Source: a virus. From it: 64,000 bases of DNA. The DNA lies in the IMG/VR virus record IMGVR_UViG_3300021962_000082, positions 6,475 to 70,474 of that record. One strand, given 5' to 3'. Under the pieces are notes generated by a model, which saw only the letters and a program-made list of their open reading frames with translations, made no database searches and had not been told where the DNA came from. Position 1 is the stretch's first letter, and the number at the start of each line of letters is the position of its first letter. Both the position numbers and the translations under genes were made by a program. Shown piece by piece: positions 5,963-58,601 of the stretch.

Positions 5963-6406
5963 CTATTTGTTTAAGCACTCGGCAATAATGTAGCTGCCCA
6001 CACGGGTATAGTTCCTATGAGCCCAAACACCGGCTAGCAATGTGTCAAATGTTTTGTAGGTAAATGACTGCCGCCATTCGGGCTTAGGATGATTCTTTGT
6101 CAGCGTCATAATAATATATCTATCAGCAAAAGGGGCTATTTTCTGTACAAAAGATTCAGGATCTTTTACATATTCAAGCACACCCAAAACCAATCCTACA
6201 TCATAATGTTTCTCTAACACTATAGTGTCGCTGTCAAAATCAATTTGTATATCAGCAGTGGGGGCACGATCCAATCCCACATAGTCGCGAAACGATTGGT
6301 AGTTTAGGATGCTTTTATCGCCACAACCAAAGTCTACCACAGTAGAATCTTTTAAGTTGTATTGATCCAGCAATCGATTGCGGCTTGCCCACCGTGGTTC
6401 AGTCAT
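5963..6406 (-). CDS. small SAM-dependent methyltransferase
   Basis: VVDFGCG, LGVLEYV; probable start MTEPRW overlapping upstream gene. Confidence 0.7.
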   Translation of the reverse strand: MTEPRWASRNRLLDQYNLKDSTVVDFGCGDKSILNYQSFRDYVGLDRAPTADIQIDFDSDTIVLEKHYDVGLVLGVLEYVKDPESFVQKIAPFADRYIIMTLTKNHPKPEWRQSFTYKTFDTLLAGVWAHRNYTRVGSYIIAECLNK

Positions 6407-7307
6407 CAAAATAAACACCCTTCAAATGCTGCCAAGCAGTTCCGTCATTTAACTCGTTCATATTCCAAATCATATAAGCAGCGTTGTGTAGCCATTGAGT
6501 GCGATCAATGTTTAATTTTGGATGCGCTAGGTCTTCTATACGGTTAGCAATGTCCCAAACAACGCTTTCATCACTGAGTGGAAAGGTAGGAATACCTTCA
6601 CAGGTGCTTTCAACTAGCGTGTTGGTGTTGTAGCCTACAACGGCACATGCAGCATCAAAATCTTTTTGTAATCCATCGCCACCTTCGTATACGGTGCGTT
6701 GGTTCCATGTTGTGCTCAATCTAACATTTTTGCTAATAAACTGAGCAAAATTGATTTTTCCTGTTTTCAAATGTGGTCGTATCATTATTGGAGCATCTGT
6801 GCGGAGTCGAATCTGTTCAATAGCATGTGCTATCCAGTCTTCGTAGGTCTTGTACTGTTCATATAAACTGTTGAGCGTAGAATCGCCGGGTTTTTGCAAG
6901 CACAACAGGACATAACCATCACGCAAGCGCCAGGGCTTGATTTTAATGTCCTGCAATTTTTGTATGTGATTCCAACGGTCGGGTGGGCTGTTGCTATTGT
7001 TAAAATTGCCACTTCTCAAAAAATGTCCCCAGCCTAAGCGATAATAACACTTGTCGGGATGGTGCACGGAATAACTATTTTTTCTAAATAAATTTGATTC
7101 ACAGACCAACACTGGACGCCCGGAATTTTTTATAAAATCATACTCTTTTATATGTCGAGTTTTGTGCTTTTTCACATTGATTTGAAAATAACAATCAGCT
7201 TGGCTTTTTTTGGGATCATCAAAATCTAAAATACTCCAACCTGGTATTTTAAAATCCACTTGAAAAAATTTATTAATCAAACCAGTAAAGGCTACAACTC
7301 GAGTCAT
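6399..7307 (-). CDS. glycosyltransferase-like (capsule-synthesis-like) protein, paralog 3
   Basis: IRPH, CAVVGYNTN, CEGIPTF, R.QWL..A...W...E...G.AW. Confidence 0.6.
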   Translation of the reverse strand: MTRVVAFTGLINKFFQVDFKIPGWSILDFDDPKKSQADCYFQINVKKHKTRHIKEYDFIKNSGRPVLVCESNLFRKNSYSVHHPDKCYYRLGWGHFLRSGNFNNSNSPPDRWNHIQKLQDIKIKPWRLRDGYVLLCLQKPGDSTLNSLYEQYKTYEDWIAHAIEQIRLRTDAPIMIRPHLKTGKINFAQFISKNVRLSTTWNQRTVYEGGDGLQKDFDAACAVVGYNTNTLVESTCEGIPTFPLSDESVVWDIANRIEDLAHPKLNIDRTQWLHNAAYMIWNMNELNDGTAWQHLKGVYFDD

Positions 7308-50468: not shown

Positions 50469-51265
50469 ACATAGGAATCGTTGGCTTTGGTTATGTGGGT
50501 TCGGCTGTAGCGGCCAGTTACGCCGACAATCAAGTGTTGGTCTATGATCCTAAATATCCTGAGATATCCAGGTCCCTAAACGATATCAAACGAGAGTGTG
50601 AATTTGTTTTTGTATGTGTGCCAACACCTAGCGGCCCAGGGGGATGTGATACCAGTATGCTGGATAACGTTATTGGTCAGTTGAAAGGCTATACAGGCGT
50701 TGTAATTGTAAAATCAACTGCCCCGCCTCAATGGTATGCAGTAGCCGAAGCGGCAGCCGGATTGAAAATTGCACATGTTCCGGAATTTTTAACGCAAGCA
50801 CGAGCCAAGTATGACTATGTTAATCCCCATAAAATTGTTGTTGGCTGTAAAACAGAATTAAGAAACGAAGTTAAACGAGCATTGATGGCAAGTGCAATCA
50901 ACTTTGATCGCATTGCTAACATTGAGTTTTGTTCTATAGCAGAAGCTAGTTTTTTCAAGTATATGGCCAATAATTTTCTAGCAATGAAAGTTGTAATCAA
51001 CAATGAGTTTGCACAACTGGCACAGGCTATGGGACTGGATTGGGAAACACTGGCTTCAATGGCACGCACTGACACCAGATTGGGCAACACACACTGGGCA
51101 GTACCCGGACCTGACGGCGACTATGGATTTGGTGGTGCTTGCTTTCCCAAGGATACAGAAGCATTACAAGTTATGGCTCAAGACTTAGATGTTGAAACAA
51201 CCATGCTTGACACAGCCGTAAGCACTAACAAAAATCTAAGATTTAGTTTTAACAAACACCATTAA
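50465..51265 (+). CDS. short UDP-glucose/GDP-mannose dehydrogenase family protein
   Basis: GFGYVG, CVPTP, KST, PEFL, GFGGACFPKD; lacks C-terminal domain. Confidence 0.85.
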   Translation: MNIGIVGFGYVGSAVAASYADNQVLVYDPKYPEISRSLNDIKRECEFVFVCVPTPSGPGGCDTSMLDNVIGQLKGYTGVVIVKSTAPPQWYAVAEAAAGLKIAHVPEFLTQARAKYDYVNPHKIVVGCKTELRNEVKRALMASAINFDRIANIEFCSIAEASFFKYMANNFLAMKVVINNEFAQLAQAMGLDWETLASMARTDTRLGNTHWAVPGPDGDYGFGGACFPKDTEALQVMAQDLDVETTMLDTAVSTNKNLRFSFNKHH

Positions 51266-51893
51266 ATTTTATAGTAATCAAGCCACCTTGATTATTATTT
51301 GCTGGTCTTTGAACATTGCATATTGGCTCTTTATTTGCATATTCATTATGACGCCCCACACAATCAGGAGGGCTGTCACTAGAAGTGCAATTATCGCAAC
51401 TGTAAGGAAATACACCCGGAATTCCGGTGTTATTATTCCAGCTATTATTTTTAATATTTTTTACTTTAATGGCGCCAAAGTTACTGGTCCAGTCATCGGC
51501 ACTTAAATCAAATTCAATTAGTGCATTCGCACCAGCAACACAAGAATTATCTATTGTTTCCTGCCCCATAGGTTGAAATCCATTGTTGATGATAACTTCG
51601 GCTAAATTGACTCCGTGTGGAAATTCATTAGTTGGGCAATTCATTGGGGGTGTATTAAATGAAAAATTACCATTGAATCCTTGCGAGCCTGGCGCCCCTA
51701 CAGGAGTTGATTGCTGTTTTTCCAATATAAAATATCCCTGTAAGAAACGTTTTTCATCAGTAACCACCATCGAAATACCTTTGGCCATTTGTACTTGTTT
51801 CACATTTTGTACGCAACCTGGGGTTACACCTAGTGTAACATAAACTTTTACTGGAGAGTTTGTTGTATTTTGGACTTCTAATTGTGTTGGCAT
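51249..51893 (-). CDS. thaumatin-like Cys-rich beta protein
   Basis: NLAE.I.N...ETIDNSCVAGAN resembles the thaumatin LAEF..D.S.V.G.N signature. Confidence 0.45.
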   Translation of the reverse strand: MPTQLEVQNTTNSPVKVYVTLGVTPGCVQNVKQVQMAKGISMVVTDEKRFLQGYFILEKQQSTPVGAPGSQGFNGNFSFNTPPMNCPTNEFPHGVNLAEVIINNGFQPMGQETIDNSCVAGANALIEFDLSADDWTSNFGAIKVKNIKNNSWNNNTGIPGVFPYSCDNCTSSDSPPDCVGRHNEYANKEPICNVQRPANNNQGGLITIKFNGVC

Positions 51894-51902
51894 ATAGTTT
51901 TA

Positions 51903-52250
51903 TTAGTAATTATTTTTTGGTGGTTTTGAAGGGTTAACTTCTGCGCCGCCCATATAAACCATAACATTCTTGCCTGATCCTGTAACACAATATACTTTGT
52001 CATTAACTTGTTCGACAATAGTATATGTTAGTGTTTTTGGATTAACAAACATAATTGTAACTAATTCTTCTTTATCCCGTGTGCTAACCATTTGAAGCAT
52101 TGGCCGCTCATCATATTCTTTTAATACTTCAACAACTTTTGCCTGCGTAGCGCAAGGAACAGTTAATTTAATAGCATCGGGTGTTGGTGATTGCTGTGCA
52201 TGCACAGCAGATGACGCTAATAGCAGAATACTTAATACAAGTTTTTTCAT
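51903..52250 (-). CDS. secreted hypothetical protein
   Basis: Sec signal MKKLVLSILLLASSAVHA; two Cys. Confidence 0.75.
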   Translation of the reverse strand: MKKLVLSILLLASSAVHAQQSPTPDAIKLTVPCATQAKVVEVLKEYDERPMLQMVSTRDKEELVTIMFVNPKTLTYTIVEQVNDKVYCVTGSGKNVMVYMGGAEVNPSKPPKNNY

Positions 52251-52286: not shown

Positions 52287-52751
52287 CTATGCTTGTAATC
52301 CGGGCAGGTAGACAGTTTTCTTGTCTTTTGACACCGCTGTTAGCATTTCTTTTTTAAGATTTGCTGGATTATATGACACATGTACCCATCCTGAGCTTGG
52401 TACGCCTGGAGTATAAAACTCTAATATCAATTGTGTAAAATCTAAATTATCAGCAATCCAATGAGCCAAGTCAGCATTGCTAATGCCAGGAATTTCGATA
52501 TCAGCAGCCATTCCCTTAACATGCTCGCTGCTGGCAGAACCTCGAGCTGCACTATTAACCGCTGGTGATCTGTAGCCGCTGTTAACATGCACACCACGGC
52601 CGTAGTGATCGCGAACTGGTTGTAAAACATTTTCGGCCAGTGCCACCATGTTTTTAATTTCTGTGTCTCCGGGTGTATTGTCCAAGTGATTGCGTAGTGC
52701 AACATCACTTTTTGTCATTTCATCTAATGTAAAGTTTTCTGATAATTTCAT
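52287..52751 (-). CDS. peptidase M15 (putative endolysin)
   Basis: LSENFTL.E, SGYRS, SEH..G.AAD, WVHVS. Confidence 0.9.
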   Translation of the reverse strand: MKLSENFTLDEMTKSDVALRNHLDNTPGDTEIKNMVALAENVLQPVRDHYGRGVHVNSGYRSPAVNSAARGSASSEHVKGMAADIEIPGISNADLAHWIADNLDFTQLILEFYTPGVPSSGWVHVSYNPANLKKEMLTAVSKDKKTVYLPGLQA

Positions 52752-52833
52752 TTAATCCTTTGGCATTGCCGTTTGTGCAAAATAAACACATTAATAATAT
52801 TTATTTTGTTCTAATTCTATAGTAAATAGTGTT

Positions 52834-53565
52834 ATGTTAACGTTTATAATTTCTTATATTTTTTTTGTCCTATGGGCTTGGTTACAAAATACGTACCTTC
52901 ACCGATCTTTATCCCATAAACAACTTGAGTTTCATCCAATAATGGTACAAATTATTAAAATAGTAGCTTGGATGAGTCAACGACGATACTACACAGACTG
53001 GGGCAAAGTATGGGTAGCAGTACATAGAATGCATCACGCATATACGGACACAGATAAAGATCCGCACTCACCACACCACAAGAGTTTTACAGATATTTTG
53101 TTTCTGAAACGTCGTCGATTGACCAACGAAGAAATTGAATCTTGGACCAAAGATGTTAAAATAACAGTTACTAAATTGGATAAATTAATGGAAAAATTAC
53201 CAATTGGGCCGGTTGTATTTCTAGTAATTATGGTATCTTTATTTTCTTGGATCGGATTTTTAATTTGGTTGGCCTGTATTAATTCACATTACCTTATTAC
53301 ATCCTTTAACTACGTAACCCATGGTAAAATACCAGGTTACACTAACAGTCCTAATGCAAAATCTGACAAATCAAAAAACATACCTTATTTAGTATTTGCT
53401 TATTTAGGTGAAGACTTACATGCAAACCATCACAAATGGCCAACTTCGGCTAATATGGCTGTAAGGTGGTGGGAAGTTGATTTTGGTTATTGGATTTTGA
53501 AATTTCTTTCACTGTTTGGTTTAGTAACATTTAATAAAACTGCGCTGCTGGAAAAGACAATTTAA
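52834..53565 (+). CDS. membrane fatty-acid desaturase (delta-9-like)
   Basis: His boxes HRSLSH, HRMHH, HANHH; DPHSP; WWEVD. Confidence 0.9.
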   Translation: MLTFIISYIFFVLWAWLQNTYLHRSLSHKQLEFHPIMVQIIKIVAWMSQRRYYTDWGKVWVAVHRMHHAYTDTDKDPHSPHHKSFTDILFLKRRRLTNEEIESWTKDVKITVTKLDKLMEKLPIGPVVFLVIMVSLFSWIGFLIWLACINSHYLITSFNYVTHGKIPGYTNSPNAKSDKSKNIPYLVFAYLGEDLHANHHKWPTSANMAVRWWEVDFGYWILKFLSLFGLVTFNKTALLEKTI

Positions 53566-53585
53566 GTTTATTCTGATATAGTGAT

Positions 53586-53613
53586 AAGGATTAGGACTTC
53601 AATCCTAATCCTT
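53586..53613. terminator. 11-bp perfect hairpin between convergent genes
   Basis: AAGGATTAGGA-cttcaa-TCCTAATCCTT. Confidence 0.55.
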
Positions 53614-54045
53614 TGGCATTGCCGTTTGTGCATCCCATTCATACAACTCGATTTGCGTATCTGCGTCGGTTGGTGTTTTGCTCTTTTTAGCTACCATGCG
53701 CTTGCCTTCTTTTTGCGCCTTGGTACCTTTTTCCAGTTGTTCTTGCGACTGCTTGGTCCAGGGAATACGACGGAACACTGGATAATCAACATCGGGTTCT
53801 ATAGTTAGTAGATAAATCCAGGGCTTGGCATTTTTAGCATACACAACTCGAAAAGAGTCGTCTTCGGGCAAACCATCTTTGGGTTGTCCCCACAAGTCAT
53901 TTACCGTATGCCAACTAAACGCAACATTGAATAACAAGAACGGAACCAGGATGGACATTAGTATTGGGTTCCATTTTTCTTTGATCATAACAACTAACAC
54001 AATTATGGTCAACAGCATTAAACTAAAAATTGCAAGTGCTAACAT
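53605..54045 (-). CDS. membrane protein, third gene of ExbBD-like trio
   Basis: Two N-terminal TMs then soluble domain; start MLALAI with AAGGA SD. Confidence 0.7.
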   Translation of the reverse strand: MLALAIFSLMLLTIIVLVVMIKEKWNPILMSILVPFLLFNVAFSWHTVNDLWGQPKDGLPEDDSFRVVYAKNAKPWIYLLTIEPDVDYPVFRRIPWTKQSQEQLEKGTKAQKEGKRMVAKKSKTPTDADTQIELYEWDAQTAMPKD

Positions 54046-54049
54046 ATTT

Positions 54050-54757
54050 TTATATTCCTTCTGGGGCAGGCAAAGATGAATTAGTTGGCTCTGGAGCAGC
54101 ATAAGGACGCACCAACCGTCCTGAGTATTTCTTTGTTAATACTGGAACAATGTCCTCATCTGTTTCAGTAACATTAGAAACGTTCCCGTCGGCATTTACT
54201 GTAAATTTATAGTAATTGCGTGCCTCACCTTCGTCAGTAAAATTCTTTGTTTGCTTGTAAATTATTGAGTAAGGATTAATCTTCTGTACCTCAACAGTAA
54301 CTGGCAAACTGTCGTACATTTTAAAATCTTTTTCGTGATCCTTAAACACTGGTTTTCTATACCAGTGTACAGAAATATAATATTCACCAGGCATCTTGCC
54401 GCGGACGGTTACTACTTCTCTATTGACTTTTATAATCACTTCCTTACCGTCAATCTCCATTTTGTCTTCAAGAACACCACGATCGTCTCGATCTAAGTGT
54501 ATTAGTGGTGAGTCTTTTCTTGTGAATCCCACAACGTTCATATCGGGACCACGAACCCAAATGTCGATATCGTCAGCCGAATCTTCAGGCCACGTTAGTG
54601 CAATAATAAATTCAGCAGGAGTAATAATGTCACCCTTTTTAGCAACGGGGTTGATCATTAAGAACGCAATTAAGAATAAAAATACGAATCCAACAAGAAT
54701 GTTGAATAACAAGTCTGTAAATGCTACAGTACTTTTAAACTTTTGTGGCGAGTCCAT
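54050..54757 (-). CDS. ExbD/TolR/MotB-like single-TM protein with YfaP-like C-terminal domain
   Basis: AFTDLLF TM with conserved Asp; LTW..DIDIWV..P..LDRDD.G..N.E..GEY.I.VH.Y. Confidence 0.65.
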   Translation of the reverse strand: MDSPQKFKSTVAFTDLLFNILVGFVFLFLIAFLMINPVAKKGDIITPAEFIIALTWPEDSADDIDIWVRGPDMNVVGFTRKDSPLIHLDRDDRGVLEDKMEIDGKEVIIKVNREVVTVRGKMPGEYYISVHWYRKPVFKDHEKDFKMYDSLPVTVEVQKINPYSIIYKQTKNFTDEGEARNYYKFTVNADGNVSNVTETDEDIVPVLTKKYSGRLVRPYAAPEPTNSSLPAPEGI

Positions 54758-55256
54758 CAGCGTAATGCTCCAAGTTCACCAGCTGACTCTTTAAGAATAT
54801 ACTTGCAACTAAACCAACCAGTGTGGTATACAATGCTGTACTCATTCCCAACGCCATGCTGGCCAGTGCTGTTTGTAAACTTTGTGTATTGGAAACGTCG
54901 ATGTGACTAAATGCAGTCCCGAGCATTAATAAGAAGCCAGCCACCGTTCCAACCATACCCAATGCTAGGCAAGTTTCTGCCAAATACCATCCAATTTTAG
55001 AATTGTTTTGTATGTCGGACGCAGTGGTTTTTCTGTGCCATAATCCAATTAATACAGATCCTAATACCCACATTAAAACAATAACAAAACTAAGTTTAGT
55101 TTGGTCATGTTGCCAAATTAAACGATGTGCATCAAAATATACTGCAATAGAAATTAAAACTGTTTGAATGCACACCATTAGATACCAAGTCATAAATGCT
55201 TGTTGTGGTGTTACTGTTGTTATTTTTGCTAACCATCGCACTAAATTTTTAATCAT
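54735..55256 (-). CDS. MotA/TolQ/ExbB proton-channel family protein
   Basis: LGMVGTVAG and GMSTALYTTLVGL in the last two TMs. Confidence 0.8.
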   Translation of the reverse strand: MIKNLVRWLAKITTVTPQQAFMTWYLMVCIQTVLISIAVYFDAHRLIWQHDQTKLSFVIVLMWVLGSVLIGLWHRKTTASDIQNNSKIGWYLAETCLALGMVGTVAGFLLMLGTAFSHIDVSNTQSLQTALASMALGMSTALYTTLVGLVASIFLKSQLVNLEHYADGLATKV

Positions 55257-55500
55257 TTTTATCCGCTTGCATATATTTTTTTAATTGTTCTAGCAAATCA
55301 AGCAACGCTTGCTTAACTTCAGCGGCCGCATCAATGCTGTCCAACTCGTTGCGTAGTACAGCTATAAACTCGCTAGGAGTTGCCGTTCTAGTGTGCTCAT
55401 CGAACGTATAGTTATTTATTTGGTCAACTAGCGAAATTACCCGCGGATTTGTGGTTTTGTGCGCTTCAATAATACCATTAGCGAGCCGTAATAACGACAT
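55249..55500 (-). CDS. hypothetical protein
   Basis: 83-aa helical ORF coupled to both neighbours. Confidence 0.65.
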   Translation of the reverse strand: MSLLRLANGIIEAHKTTNPRVISLVDQINNYTFDEHTRTATPSEFIAVLRNELDSIDAAAEVKQALLDLLEQLKKYMQADKND

Positions 55501-55501
55501 T

Positions 55502-55828
55502 TTATTTGGCAGCGTCTTCGTTTTCTGAAATTTCTCTTCTTCTGCTTAGTGCGCTACCTGTTAGTAATGCGCCAAACGCAAGATGAAACATTCCCCCACC
55601 TCGTAGGGTATACGGATCGTGCTGATTGAAGTTTGCTTTTATTAATTCTACTTGAACTTGCTGACTTACATTGCCAGCAAGAAATATACTTTTATCTAAA
55701 TCTTTTCGCATAATACCAATCCAAGTTGGCACTACAACAAAGTCAAATAAACAAATGATTGCATAAACAGAAGCCATAACGGATTTCCACCCATCATGCT
55801 TCTGCATCCATACAAAAAATTGTCTCAT
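55502..55828 (-). CDS. holin-like membrane protein (resembles 3TM gene-transfer holin family)
   Basis: W...M..VY..ICLFDF...P and P.TL.GGG.FHLAFGA.L. Confidence 0.6.
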   Translation of the reverse strand: MRQFFVWMQKHDGWKSVMASVYAIICLFDFVVVPTWIGIMRKDLDKSIFLAGNVSQQVQVELIKANFNQHDPYTLRGGGMFHLAFGALLTGSALSRRREISENEDAAK

Positions 55829-55834
55829 GATATT

Positions 55835-56575
55835 TTACATGCTGGCTAGCTTTAATTTATGCACATAGTTGTCCATAAAGTGATCATAGACGCTGCTAAA
55901 GTACTGTCTTTTTTCTAGTGCACGTTTTCTTGCAAGAATCTGATCCCATAACAATCTCCATCCAGCAGAATGGCGGGCGTTTCCGTGGTAATCTAAGTAC
56001 AGTATTGTACCATGATGACGGAATTTCATAATATAAAGTGGGACTCTGGTAACAGCATCACAGCAATTGATAACTCGTGTGTGGGGTACTTTTAATGCCG
56101 AAACAAAGGCTTTAGTGCCAACTCTTGGAGAGCCAAATGTAACTAATGCGTTAACATTAATTAAGCCGCGAAACGACAGTCTAGAAGCCATAATGGTTGC
56201 CATTGCAGCACCAAGGCTGTGTCCTGTTATTACTAGTGGTAAATTATTTCCGTCTTTGTTTAAGTTAAGTAATATGTCATCCCATAATTTATTAACTTCT
56301 TTTCGAAAGCCAACATGTACATGGGAACCGTTTTCTTCTTTGTTTTTACCCGAAGTTAAATCAGCAAGTATGTCGCTTTTTTGTTTAACTTCAGTACCGC
56401 GAAACGACAGTACTCGTTCTTTTCCGTTAGTTAACAAATATGCTTGGGCGCCCTTTTTGTCAAAAAAGTTAAGAATAGAATAACCGTATTCTTTAAACGC
56501 CCCTGTTGCTTTGTCTGGATTAAGGTAAGTGTCCCTGGCTATCTTAGCATACGGTAGTATTTCTTTTGGTGTCAT
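55835..56575 (-). CDS. class 3 lipase
   Basis: SFRGT, VH.GF, ITGHSLGAAMA, TFGSPRVG, D.V.RVP, terminal DH. Confidence 0.92.
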   Translation of the reverse strand: MTPKEILPYAKIARDTYLNPDKATGAFKEYGYSILNFFDKKGAQAYLLTNGKERVLSFRGTEVKQKSDILADLTSGKNKEENGSHVHVGFRKEVNKLWDDILLNLNKDGNNLPLVITGHSLGAAMATIMASRLSFRGLINVNALVTFGSPRVGTKAFVSALKVPHTRVINCCDAVTRVPLYIMKFRHHGTILYLDYHGNARHSAGWRLLWDQILARKRALEKRQYFSSVYDHFMDNYVHKLKLASM

Positions 56576-56650: not shown

Positions 56651-58477
56651 TTAGTCCGGAGCACCACCCTTTTTAATTATATCATTGATCAAGTAGTTAA
56701 CTTGGTCATTAGTTTCCCAAACACCACCTAGCGTAGCAGTATCAATGTCAAATCCAATACTGGTGTTTGTGCCAACTAACCCGTCATCACCAACTTTAAA
56801 CTCAACATCGACAGGATTGCCCTGCAAGTTCTGATCTTTGCCCGAAGTATTGGTTAACAATATTTCAAGTTCATCATCATTTAGTTCCCAAGTTGCACTA
56901 AAGCCTTTTGCAGCCTTAACATCAAGTATATCAAGCAGCGCAAGTGCTTCTTGATCGCCGGTTACTTTGATGTTTAGTGTTACTGATTCACCATCAGCAA
57001 TTTTACCCAACTGCTCTCCGGAACGATCTTGGAACTGTACATTAAACGATATTGGCTCTTCCTCTTCCAATGTGTATGCTTGATCGCTGTTGTTTCCGCC
57101 TTGAGACATAAACCAATTTTCACCAGTTTCCTCTACAGGCCAGGGCGTGTAATCGATGTCAGTATCAGTTAACACTTCCTGATCAGTTTCTACGGTTGTG
57201 TTAGTATTGGGTTGCTCACTGCTATCAACACCATCAACAACAGGATCGCTTCTAACAACACTTGATGTTCCGTCTGGATAGGTTGTTGTAGTTACAGTAA
57301 CTTGATATGTTGTTGTAGTTGTTACTACAAGTTCACCAGTGGTAACATCTCTGGAGTAATCAACAGTTGTAGTTGTAGTTGTGGTGATAATATCACGTTC
57401 ATTTTCTTCATCAGCGGTTGTTGTGGTTTCTGTAGTTGTATTACGACCAGTTTCTGCCCACTCACCATATACTGTTTCCAGCGGTGTTCTTTCAGTTGTG
57501 GTTTCTGTGTAGTACTCGTATGTTACAGTAACAACTGGTTCCGCTGGCCATGGATCATAATCAACGTTGGTATCAGTTGATACTTCTTGATTGGTTTGTT
57601 GCGTTGTAGTTGTTGTTGTTTCTGTGCTAGTCTCAACATTATCAACAACTGGGTCAGCCCTGGATACTGTAACAGTTCCGTCTGGATTGGTTGTTGTTGT
57701 AACTTCTACTTTGTATGTAGTAGTTGTAGTAGTTGTAATTTCTGACGTTGTTACGTCACGTGACAAGTCAACAGTGGTTGTGGTAGTTGTAGTAACTACA
57801 TTTTGCTTATTATCTTCATCAGCAGTAGTTGATGTATCTGTAGTTGTGTTGCGTCCAACTTCTGTCCAAGATCCGTAAGTTGTGTCGCCTGGTACTGTGC
57901 TTGTTGTAACTTCTGTATAGTATTCGTATGTGATAGCGACAACTGGTTCTGCTGGGGGTTCTGCGGGCGGCTCTGTTACTGTTGATGGTTCTTGTTCTGT
58001 CGGTAATGCGTCACCAACTAGCACTTCTGGTCTTCCTGGAGGAGTGAAGTTATAGTTAAAGGACAGTGGATTGACTCCCTCTGCAATGCGTAATAGTTGT
58101 ACAAAACTACTACCACTACCTTCGCCGCCTCCTGCGCCCAAACCAGCAGCAGTTGCATCTAAGTTTTCTAATAAATCACCACTACCGTCTAATGATTGTA
58201 TAACTGAATTAATATCAGCAGAGTTGGCAACTGCTGCTTCTTTTGCTGTGGGTAGCAGTTCTGTGTTGAATACAGAGTTGTCTATTGCTACTGTTTGTCC
58301 GGGCTCTAATGCAAGTGTCTCACCGCTTGCATCAGCAAGAACAATGCTGCCCTGTCCCGTTATGATTTTGTCGGTGTCAGCTATTGCATCACCAACTTTT
58401 AATTCACGAATGCTTCCGTCTTGTGCTTGGGCAAGAACTTTGCCGCTTATTTCTTTTACTGTGGCGATTGTAGCCAT
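56651..58477 (-). CDS. LapA-type retention-module protein (T1SS adhesin-like) with two Thr-rich repeats
   Basis: DG..R.L..GD N-domain, DLLENLDATAAG-Gly linker, SFVQLLRI.E; AAGGAG SD. Confidence 0.8.
   Translation of the reverse strand: MATIATVKEISGKVLAQAQDGSIRELKVGDAIADTDKIITGQGSIVLADASGETLALEPGQTVAIDNSVFNTELLPTAKEAAVANSADINSVIQSLDGSGDLLENLDATAAGLGAGGGEGSGSSFVQLLRIAEGVNPLSFNYNFTPPGRPEVLVGDALPTEQEPSTVTEPPAEPPAEPVVAITYEYYTEVTTSTVPGDTTYGSWTEVGRNTTTDTSTTADEDNKQNVVTTTTTTTVDLSRDVTTSEITTTTTTTYKVEVTTTTNPDGTVTVSRADPVVDNVETSTETTTTTTQQTNQEVSTDTNVDYDPWPAEPVVTVTYEYYTETTTERTPLETVYGEWAETGRNTTTETTTTADEENERDIITTTTTTTVDYSRDVTTGELVVTTTTTYQVTVTTTTYPDGTSSVVRSDPVVDGVDSSEQPNTNTTVETDQEVLTDTDIDYTPWPVEETGENWFMSQGGNNSDQAYTLEEEEPISFNVQFQDRSGEQLGKIADGESVTLNIKVTGDQEALALLDILDVKAAKGFSATWELNDDELEILLTNTSGKDQNLQGNPVDVEFKVGDDGLVGTNTSIGFDIDTATLGGVWETNDQVNYLINDIIKKGGAPD
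57140..57955 (-). repeat. intragenic tandem duplication, 2 x 408 bp (136 aa)
   Basis: Both units run PAEPVV..TYEYYTE..GRNTTT..SRDVTT..PDGT..DPVVD..DY.PW. Confidence 0.9.
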
Positions 58478-58573: not shown

Positions 58574-58601
58574 ATTATAACAATATTTATACGGGTGTCA
58601 A
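58574..58601 (-). promoter_or_regulatory. sigma70 promoter with nested late TATAAATA box
   Basis: Minus strand TTGACA-16 nt-TATAAT; TATAAATA (58584-58591) lies in the spacer. Confidence 0.7.

Follow-up and report, generated by a model that had tools for sequence, protein, structure and literature searches.

What might a phage do with the parts of an ion-driven membrane motor? This question is raised by three adjacent genes, called A, B and C here, in a 64,000-nucleotide stretch of DNA (the window; positions 6,475 to 70,474 of the IMG/VR virus record IMGVR_UViG_3300021962_000082) whose source is a large estuarine phage. We put the probability at about 60% that the trio is a new branch of the 5:2-type ion-driven complexes, one whose output is periplasmic and probably directed at the cell wall. 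The original prediction described three coupled genes at this locus, and all three open reading frames (ORFs) were found on the minus strand where it had placed them, together with the motifs it had quoted; the start of the third was corrected to position 54045. The genes are as follows.

54735-55256, minus strand: gene A, 173 residues, a minimal subunit of the MotA/ExbB/TolQ superfamily
54050-54757, minus strand: gene B, 235 residues, with a short N-terminus, one transmembrane (TM) helix, a linker, a predicted periplasmic β-sandwich and a disordered tail
53605-54045, minus strand: gene C, 146 residues, counted from the second Met of the ORF at 53605-54102

The A and B genes share an overlap of 23 nucleotides. 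The ORF at 53605-54102 overlaps the end of B, and because homologues align from its second Met, the true start of C is most likely at 54045, 4 nucleotides past the stop codon of B.

Does A belong to a family of ion channels? Its translation contains LGMVGTVAG and ALYTTLVGL, which had been read as MotA/TolQ/ExbB signatures, and the family membership is directly supported: A matches Pfam PF01618 (MotA_ExbB) over residues 81–155 with 33.5 bits (cut-off 22.9; E = 4e-8), and its homologue in the bacterial locus L024 reaches 38.9 bits. Among 149 A sequences, G100, G103, T104 and G107 are each present in 147, the other two being gaps, and T144, T145 and G148 are present in all 149. Conserved Thr and Gly residues in the last two membrane helices, which we take to line the ion path in ExbB, TolQ and MotA, are found in A as well. 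The nearest solved relatives of A in profile searches are MotA structures (8gqy, E = 0.009; 6ykm, E = 0.017), followed by TolQ and ExbB at E = 0.6–1, and the NCBIfam ZorA models give A 15–21 bits against cut-offs of 500–700. Because the scores against curated models lie below the cut-offs and the best solved relatives are MotA and then TolQ and ExbB, A is, as far as its sequence places it, a distant and separate branch of the MotA/ExbB/TolQ superfamily.

Hydropathy indicates four hydrophobic helices in the A protein of the window, with about 16 residues between helices 2 and 3. Phage A proteins are 143–178 residues long, compared with approximately 245–260 for the bacterial homologues, and the difference is an insert between helices 2 and 3. 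From the 16-residue spacing, phage A is predicted to have essentially no cytoplasmic domain.

The placement of B in the position of MotB or ExbD, with a conserved intramembrane Asp, is borne out by its family. Asp15, which belongs to the sequence FTDLLF and lies within the pattern F-x-D-L-L-F-N of the TM helix, is present in 423 of 428 B sequences, the rest comprising four gaps and one Val; the linker after the helix is also conserved (N36, P37, A39, K40 and K41). In the structural model (predicted local distance difference test, pLDDT, 80.6) a long N-terminal helix (residues 5–35) is followed by an all-β sandwich (residues 48–197). The ectodomain carries a near-invariant acidic cluster in which D63 and D65 are present in 428 of 428 sequences, D91 in 427 and E114 in 426, and of which D92, D98 and N112 are likewise almost invariant.

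What kind of domain is this sandwich? B has no family in Pfam, PHROG, NCBIfam or PADLOC. The original prediction had proposed a YfaP-like β-domain in place of an OmpA or ExbD domain. Its negative half stood, as neither ExbD (PF02472) nor OmpA (PF00691) of Pfam, nor MotB_plug (PF13677), matched B at E ≤ 0.1. Its positive half gained moderate support from hhalign: B aligned with a 26-sequence YfaP profile at a probability of 67.6% (E = 5e-5), and the 72 aligned columns contain the W..D-[IL]-D and P-G-x-Y motifs. The Pfam model DUF2135 (PF09906), a short one, gave no match to B at E ≤ 0.1 and none in the B-carrying genome G001. Pairwise BLASTP between B and a YfaP protein recovered with the DUF2135 model gave E = 0.002, and YfaP/DUF2135 is an Atlas feature neighbor of B with a score of 0.82. 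The motifs that B shares with these proteins read W..D-[IL]-D-[IL]..V..P-[DG] and P-G-x-Y-x-[IV]-x-[VL]-[HN]-[WY]-Y in full. In contrast to B, YfaP proteins are secreted and soluble, lack an Asp-bearing helix and are not encoded beside MotA-like genes.

When the B model was compared with solved structures, TerD ranked on top, with VIA Z-scores of 9.8 and 9.2 (the next was 6.3) and Foldseek E-values of about 1e-4; the best superposition (Z = 9.8) covered 133 residues with a root-mean-square deviation of 4.0. Membership in the TerD family itself (PF02342) was considered and rejected: the Pfam TerD model was silent in five B-carrying genomes, and hhalign against ten TerD sequences returned 0.15%. 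A profile search of B against the sequences of the PDB found nothing better than E = 0.05, and the chains at that level were unrelated ribosomal and lipase chains. We regard the B ectodomain as YfaP-like with a predicted TerD-type fold, its homology to YfaP being probable and distant. TerD binds calcium; we know of no mechanism for either the YfaP or the TerD family, and our literature search found no functional study of YfaP/DUF2135.

The two TM helices foreseen for the third gene appear in the model of C (pLDDT 91.5) as a hairpin (residues 2–22 and 27–52), which leads into a small β1-2-3/α/β4-5 domain (residues 64–136), a K/E-rich stretch and a short, conserved motif at the C-terminus whose last residues are P-K-D. 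In the family alignment G53 is invariant and P89 and G114 are nearly so; all three lie outside the helices, in which there is no invariant His or Ser. C likewise has no family in Pfam, PHROG, NCBIfam or PADLOC. The secondary structure elements of its domain follow an order that fits an OB-fold (a five-stranded barrel in which a helix lies between strands 3 and 4), and the structural matches to such folds are weak (eIF5A C-domain, Z = 6.3 over 74 residues; toxin B-subunit and OBody folds, Z = 4–5; Foldseek E = 0.1–0.4), with scores in the range of common arrangements. A wide structure search with C returned mostly helical hairpins matching the two membrane helices, which is uninformative on the soluble domain.

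Both termini of C probably face the periplasm, because the inter-helix loop is basic, the N-terminus of 1–3 residues is uncharged and some phage C proteins are fused to lysozyme. The charge count gave a net +0.9 for the loop, 0 for the N-terminus and about +0.2 for the flank after helix 2, by a crude measure in which the helices were over-extended (mean loop of 2.8 residues), and is a weak indication of topology. In complex predictions of single chains of A, B and C with alignments, C as a partner twice scored 0.06, where the mark is 0.32; made without controls, these runs count neither way on binding.

Do the three genes travel together? We examined 160 loci: of 154 matching stretches in bacterial genome contigs and 295 in viral contigs, the best 80 of each were taken, and the ORFs of all six frames were searched with profiles built by iteration from A, B and C of the window. 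B was recovered in all 160 loci, A in 157 and C in 156. The order A-B-C on one strand is found in 153 loci; the other seven are truncated next to B, where the contig or locus stops or starts, which makes it 153 of 153 untruncated loci, viral and bacterial alike. The check on neighborhood conservation that the original prediction had called for thus came out in its favor, and with the order kept in 153 of 160 loci, the remainder cut at an edge, and the Asp kept throughout nearly all of the B family, the association of the three genes is far beyond chance.

How widely is the trio distributed? A word-indexed search returned 246 relatives of B, and a separate full HMMER pass over 1.84 billion cluster representatives (50% identity) found 2,203 representatives at E ≤ 1e-3, 1,683 at E ≤ 1e-10 and 634 at E ≤ 1e-30. 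The idea that the phage had built a complex of its own invention had to be given up: the trio is equally a chromosomal module of Proteobacteria, with the 154 matching stretches in genome contigs, and of 301 genomes sampled across the phylum 9 have B, the seed genome included. Methylohalomonas lacus (locus L023) is a culturable bacterium with the trio. B is also present in 29 records of cultured Rhizobium and Sinorhizobium phages, annotated as hypothetical throughout. Rhizobium phage RHph_N3_19 has the full trio in genes EVB99_065-067 (A, E = 5e-15; B, E = 3e-51; C, E = 6e-17), and Sinorhizobium phage 16-3 has a looser one in p038–p042, with a weak A (E = 5e-4) and the extra genes p039 and p041 interposed. 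We found no description of the trio in the literature; the supplements of PMC12204202 and PMC12505986, which lay outside this search, may list the family among unnamed homologues.

A FastTree phylogeny of 161 B sequences, a quick method applied to best hits only, separates viral from bacterial rows with only two label changes. Because of this split, the phage trio may well be an old phage lineage. The one 'genome' row among the viral rows is probably locus L032. This locus lies on a contig filed under a metagenome-assembled genome (MAG) of Legionellales; its A is phage-sized (149 residues) and its neighbors are like those of viral loci, among them an 887-residue ORF such as L128 has. This contig probably derives from a phage or prophage that ended up in the MAG by binning.

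How does the trio relate to the known motors? It resembles ExbB-ExbD-TonB and TolQ-TolR-TolA in having a channel subunit with conserved Thr in its helices, a single-helix partner with an Asp, a third membrane-anchored protein with a charged linker and an output that is expected to be periplasmic. In ExbB and TolQ there are three helices and a cytoplasmic bundle, whereas the A of the trio seems to have four helices and hardly any cytoplasmic domain, and the periplasmic domain of ExbD and TolR is of the alpha-beta type where B has a β-sandwich. The proposal that C acts as a TonB/TolA-like output did not hold. TonB and TolA are marked by a single N-terminal helix with an SHLS/His motif, a long linker and the TonB/TolA C-terminal domain, according to the passages of PMC12204202 that deal with them; C has two helices with no invariant His or Ser, an OB-like domain instead and no TonB_C match, and the resemblance of its K/E-rich stretch to the TonB/TolA linker is architectural only.

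The flagellar stators MotA-MotB and PomA-PomB include the best solved matches of A and share with the trio the four-helix layout and the gene order of A followed by B. The conserved segment after the helix of B (N36 to K41) stands at the place of the MotB channel plug, which presumably sits just after the helix of MotB. Unlike the stators, A has no torque-generating cytoplasmic loop and B no OmpA-like peptidoglycan-binding domain; no flagellar genes were found among the window genes examined.

Zorya offers a third comparison. The membrane part of A is distantly matched by ZorA, and both systems are non-flagellar, of the 5:2 type and linked to phages. The ZorA models of PADLOC are the sole defence models matched by A (best E = 6e-7, 26.8 bits), over model positions 9–112 of 505, which is the membrane part alone. 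Unlike ZorA, whose models are 413–692 residues long, the 173-residue A lacks a tail, and B is not ZorB-like.

The nearest published idea, in the relevant passages of its source, is that of TolQ-like motors with a vWA partner that carries an Asp-bearing central helix, put forward from synteny and modelling (Mol Biol Evol 2025, PMC12204202). As presented there, these vWA 'transpore-helix' motors share with the trio a TolQ-like ring and an Asp helix on a protein with a non-TolR periplasmic domain, but the helix is on the vWA protein itself and there is no separate B. In the vWA protein that adjoins the trio in bacteria, the vWA domain comes first and is followed by a helix and a cytoplasmic FHA domain; this protein is absent from the phages and unlike the partners in those passages. 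Non-TolR partners therefore exist, yet they are distinct from the trio. A survey of MotAB relatives (PMC12505986) speaks of unnamed 'generic ion transporters' and does not describe the trio in the passages on them.

How might such a complex work? We infer a 5:2 assembly, as in MotAB, ExbBD, TolQR, ZorAB and GldLM, in which A would form an ion-conducting ring and B would supply the central 'transpore' helix, with Asp15 binding and releasing the ion and the ion flow moving B relative to A. Because phage A is almost without a cytoplasmic part, the work would be delivered in the periplasm, via the YfaP-like (TerD-fold) sandwich of B and via C, which may contact A or B and, anchored by its hairpin, would most likely turn its OB-like domain and flexible tail toward the periplasm. 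The target would probably be the cell wall or envelope, because links to lysozyme, to M15 endolysin and to L,D-transpeptidase recur around the trio. The phage copy could then couple the energization of the host membrane to the control or placement of muralytic activity late in infection.

What are these links? C is fused at its C-terminus to a Phage_lysozyme domain (PF00959, E = 4e-49) in 5 of the 80 viral loci (L129, L137, L144, L155 and L158), and an M15 endolysin gene lies directly upstream of A in 2 of them. In the window itself an M15 endolysin gene follows C at a distance of 853 nucleotides, with a desaturase gene between the two.

52834-53565, plus strand: fatty-acid desaturase (FA_desaturase, E = 1.3e-9), between C and the endolysin
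52287-52751, minus strand: M15 peptidase endolysin (Peptidase_M15_3, E = 1.4e-18; phrog_894 endolysin, E = 1.9e-40)

A DNA contig of an independent metagenome run (X5) joins position 52756 to 53606; the 849-nucleotide segment 52757–53605 is absent from it and a single T stands in its place. The desaturase segment is therefore a presence/absence insertion, and a close relative without it has the endolysin immediately behind C. Viral loci L082 and L086 also have the desaturase of the window in the vicinity of the trio. Counting this window, the fusions and adjacencies to wall hydrolases, which are directly observed, come to about three or four independent events. In bacteria, a gene for a YkuD L,D-transpeptidase precedes the trio in 68 of the 80 loci; other flanking genes encode a DUF302 protein (47 of 80) and, after the trio, a VWA-helix-FHA protein (41 of 80). 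In one example of the latter (L024:6304-7833, 509 residues), a periplasmic vWA domain at the N-terminus is followed by one helix and an FHA domain in the cytoplasm.

Several observations weigh against the reading of the trio as an ion-driven complex with a wall-directed output. A matches the curated ExbB, TolQ and ZorA models weakly, with scores far under the cut-offs, as a distant member only, and B has no sequence likeness to ExbD, TolR or MotB beyond its Asp-bearing helix. The orientation of C rests on the crude positive-inside measure and the lysozyme fusion, and a fusion alone is no proof of location. The seven lysozyme and endolysin cases include near-identical loci. A general adjacency of the trio to lysis genes was looked for in the 80 viral loci and not found, most copies lying elsewhere; the search was seeded with two hydrolase families, M15 and GH24, and may miss other types of endolysin. 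Nor did a constant phage partner gene emerge when 892 flanking ORFs were clustered, as no cluster occurred in more than 17 of the 80 loci. The viral neighbors are heterogeneous (Hsp70, Hsp20, ClpP, ClpS, deformylase, SbmA/BacA and nucleotide metabolism), and when 125 representatives of the nearest ones were scanned with Pfam, 58 different families were found, none with more than two members. On the bacterial side, the pattern of YkuD, DUF302 and VWA-FHA genes belongs to one large gammaproteobacterial group, and the link to YkuD was seen in only one of nine loci sampled across the phylum. When the flanks of three loci were scanned with Pfam, two had a HisKA_3/LuxR pair and one, alphaproteobacterial, had DUF3108-like genes. 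A weak hint of expression comes from two RNA libraries, which belong to two studies and whose short contigs match stretches of A, B and C from close relatives at 91–97% identity; stretches that no contig covers are uninformative, and the contigs may be carried-over DNA.

In the two loci with the HisKA_3/LuxR pair (L179 and L180, from large high-GC (guanine-cytosine) genomes), the trio is divergent from the genes for the HisKA_3 histidine kinase and the LuxR-type response regulator, which may be a regulatory link to envelope-stress signalling. The flanking ORFs of loci L177 and L178 are of similar size, possibly the same context. One gammaproteobacterial genome (G354) has two copies of the trio 40 kilobases apart on one contig (L183 and L184), one with YkuD, DUF302 and VWA-FHA genes and the other a bare trio.

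Could the device go further and directly gate lysis? A more specific form of the preferred reading, which we hold as doubtful, is that the trio is an ion-driven rotary device gating cell-wall hydrolysis. While the membrane is energized, the A-B motor would hold or move C, and in some phages the lysozyme fused to it, away from the peptidoglycan, and once ion flow stops or reverses the muralytic activity would be engaged. If true, phages would have a new class of lysis control that is based on a motor, and in bacteria the trio would regulate wall remodelling in a new, energy-coupled way, together with L,D-transpeptidases.

Among the alternatives, the one that survives best, although we consider it unlikely, is that the trio is a host-derived auxiliary set for envelope maintenance, which would provide a Tol-Pal-like, energy-dependent upkeep or stress response until progeny are ready, without being directly involved in lysis. 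Many bacteria have the trio on the chromosome, where it can lie beside housekeeping genes, as next to tilS and accA in L024; its bacterial neighbors (YkuD, DUF302, VWA-TM-FHA and the HisKA_3/LuxR pairs) are of the envelope and signalling kind; and phage copies stand amid host-like auxiliary genes such as Hsp70, Hsp20, ClpP, ClpS, deformylase and SbmA/BacA. The separation of phage and bacterial B on the tree (two label changes among 161 rows) argues for an old phage lineage and against a fresh capture, however, the cytoplasmic insert is lost from phage A, and upkeep would leave the lysozyme fusions and the endolysin adjacency unexplained.

An ion channel with no mechanical output is improbable. 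Such a channel would be a gated proton or cation leak that serves as a holin- or pinholin-like timer, or as a trigger for tethered muralytic enzymes, and it would fit the reduction of phage A to membrane helices and the conserved segment of B at the assumed place of the plug. The C-lysozyme fusions likewise resemble membrane-tethered endolysins, which are freed on depolarization. A mere leak would have no need, however, of the large conserved periplasmic domains of B and C or of the acidic cluster of B, and bacteria keep the trio on their chromosomes, where a lethal leak would be costly. A role in defence or counter-defence, be it as a Zorya-like sensor, in superinfection exclusion or as a decoy that poisons ZorAB, Ton or Tol motors through mixed complexes, is the least probable reading: it can point to the weak ZorA matches of the membrane part and to one viral neighbor with a PycTM domain, but A lacks the long ZorA-type tail, B and C match no defence model, no ZorC- or ZorD-like gene was found among the five neighboring proteins scanned, the bacterial copies sit in conserved housekeeping contexts and not in variable islands, and the identity of A to Ton, Tol and Mot subunits is too low for obvious mixed assembly.

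What would a periplasmic, ion-driven complex of this kind add? Few types of output are associated with motors of the MotA/ExbB type: flagellar torque, Ton import, Tol-Pal upkeep, gliding and type 9 secretion, and Zorya defence. The trio would be a widespread branch, present in Proteobacteria and in many unrelated phages, with two unstudied partner proteins. Its phage versions, pared down to the membrane core, are attractive as minimal models of how ion flow is turned into work, and the recurrent fusion or adjacency to wall enzymes is a concrete, testable lead on function. The cultured carriers RHph_N3_19 and 16-3 make bench study possible.

How is the trio embedded in this phage? The virus record comprises 70,474 bases with a CheckV completeness of 19%, and given this low completeness it is probably a fragment of a very large phage. 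The viral nature of the window is backed by the IMG/VR record; other large ORFs in it match phage helicases, a DnaB-like helicase, ribonucleotide reductase, DNA ligase and tail-fibre families, and no near-identical DNA match to the window was found among cultured phages. The trio ends a tightly packed co-directional run whose other members, with the promoter-like site upstream of the run, are:

58574-58601, minus strand: sigma-70 consensus (TTGACA, 16 nucleotides, TG, TATAAT; 12 of 12 positions match)
56651-58477, minus strand: 608-residue protein with two long Thr-rich repeat units (TTTTT runs and repeated 'AEPVV..TYEYYTE' blocks)
55835-56575, minus strand: class-3 lipase/esterase (Lipase_3, E = 1.6e-22; phrog_21992)
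55502-55828, minus strand: 108-residue membrane protein, coupled to the 83-residue gene; no family
55249-55500, minus strand: 83-residue gene whose stop overlaps the start of A; no family

Promoter-like sites total 26, which is not above the 24.2 ± 5.0 of shuffled sequences. The 608-residue protein looks like a surface or adhesin-type protein. The 108-residue membrane protein, which occurs in 2 of the 80 viral loci, could at a guess be a holin. The 83-residue gene has no homologue in the 160 related loci. Beyond the endolysin, on the minus strand at 51249-52250, are genes for a 115-residue protein with a signal peptide and a 214-residue Cys-rich protein.

Two further observations concern genes beside the trio in other viral loci. 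The PycTM (Pycsar effector) domain mentioned above was found in one gene adjoining the trio, with E = 4e-21. A full-length SbmA/BacA-like inner-membrane transporter (PF05992, E = 4e-140) is encoded just downstream of the trio in 11 of the 80 viral loci, among them L116 (at 6267-7235), L095, L092, L094 and L160.

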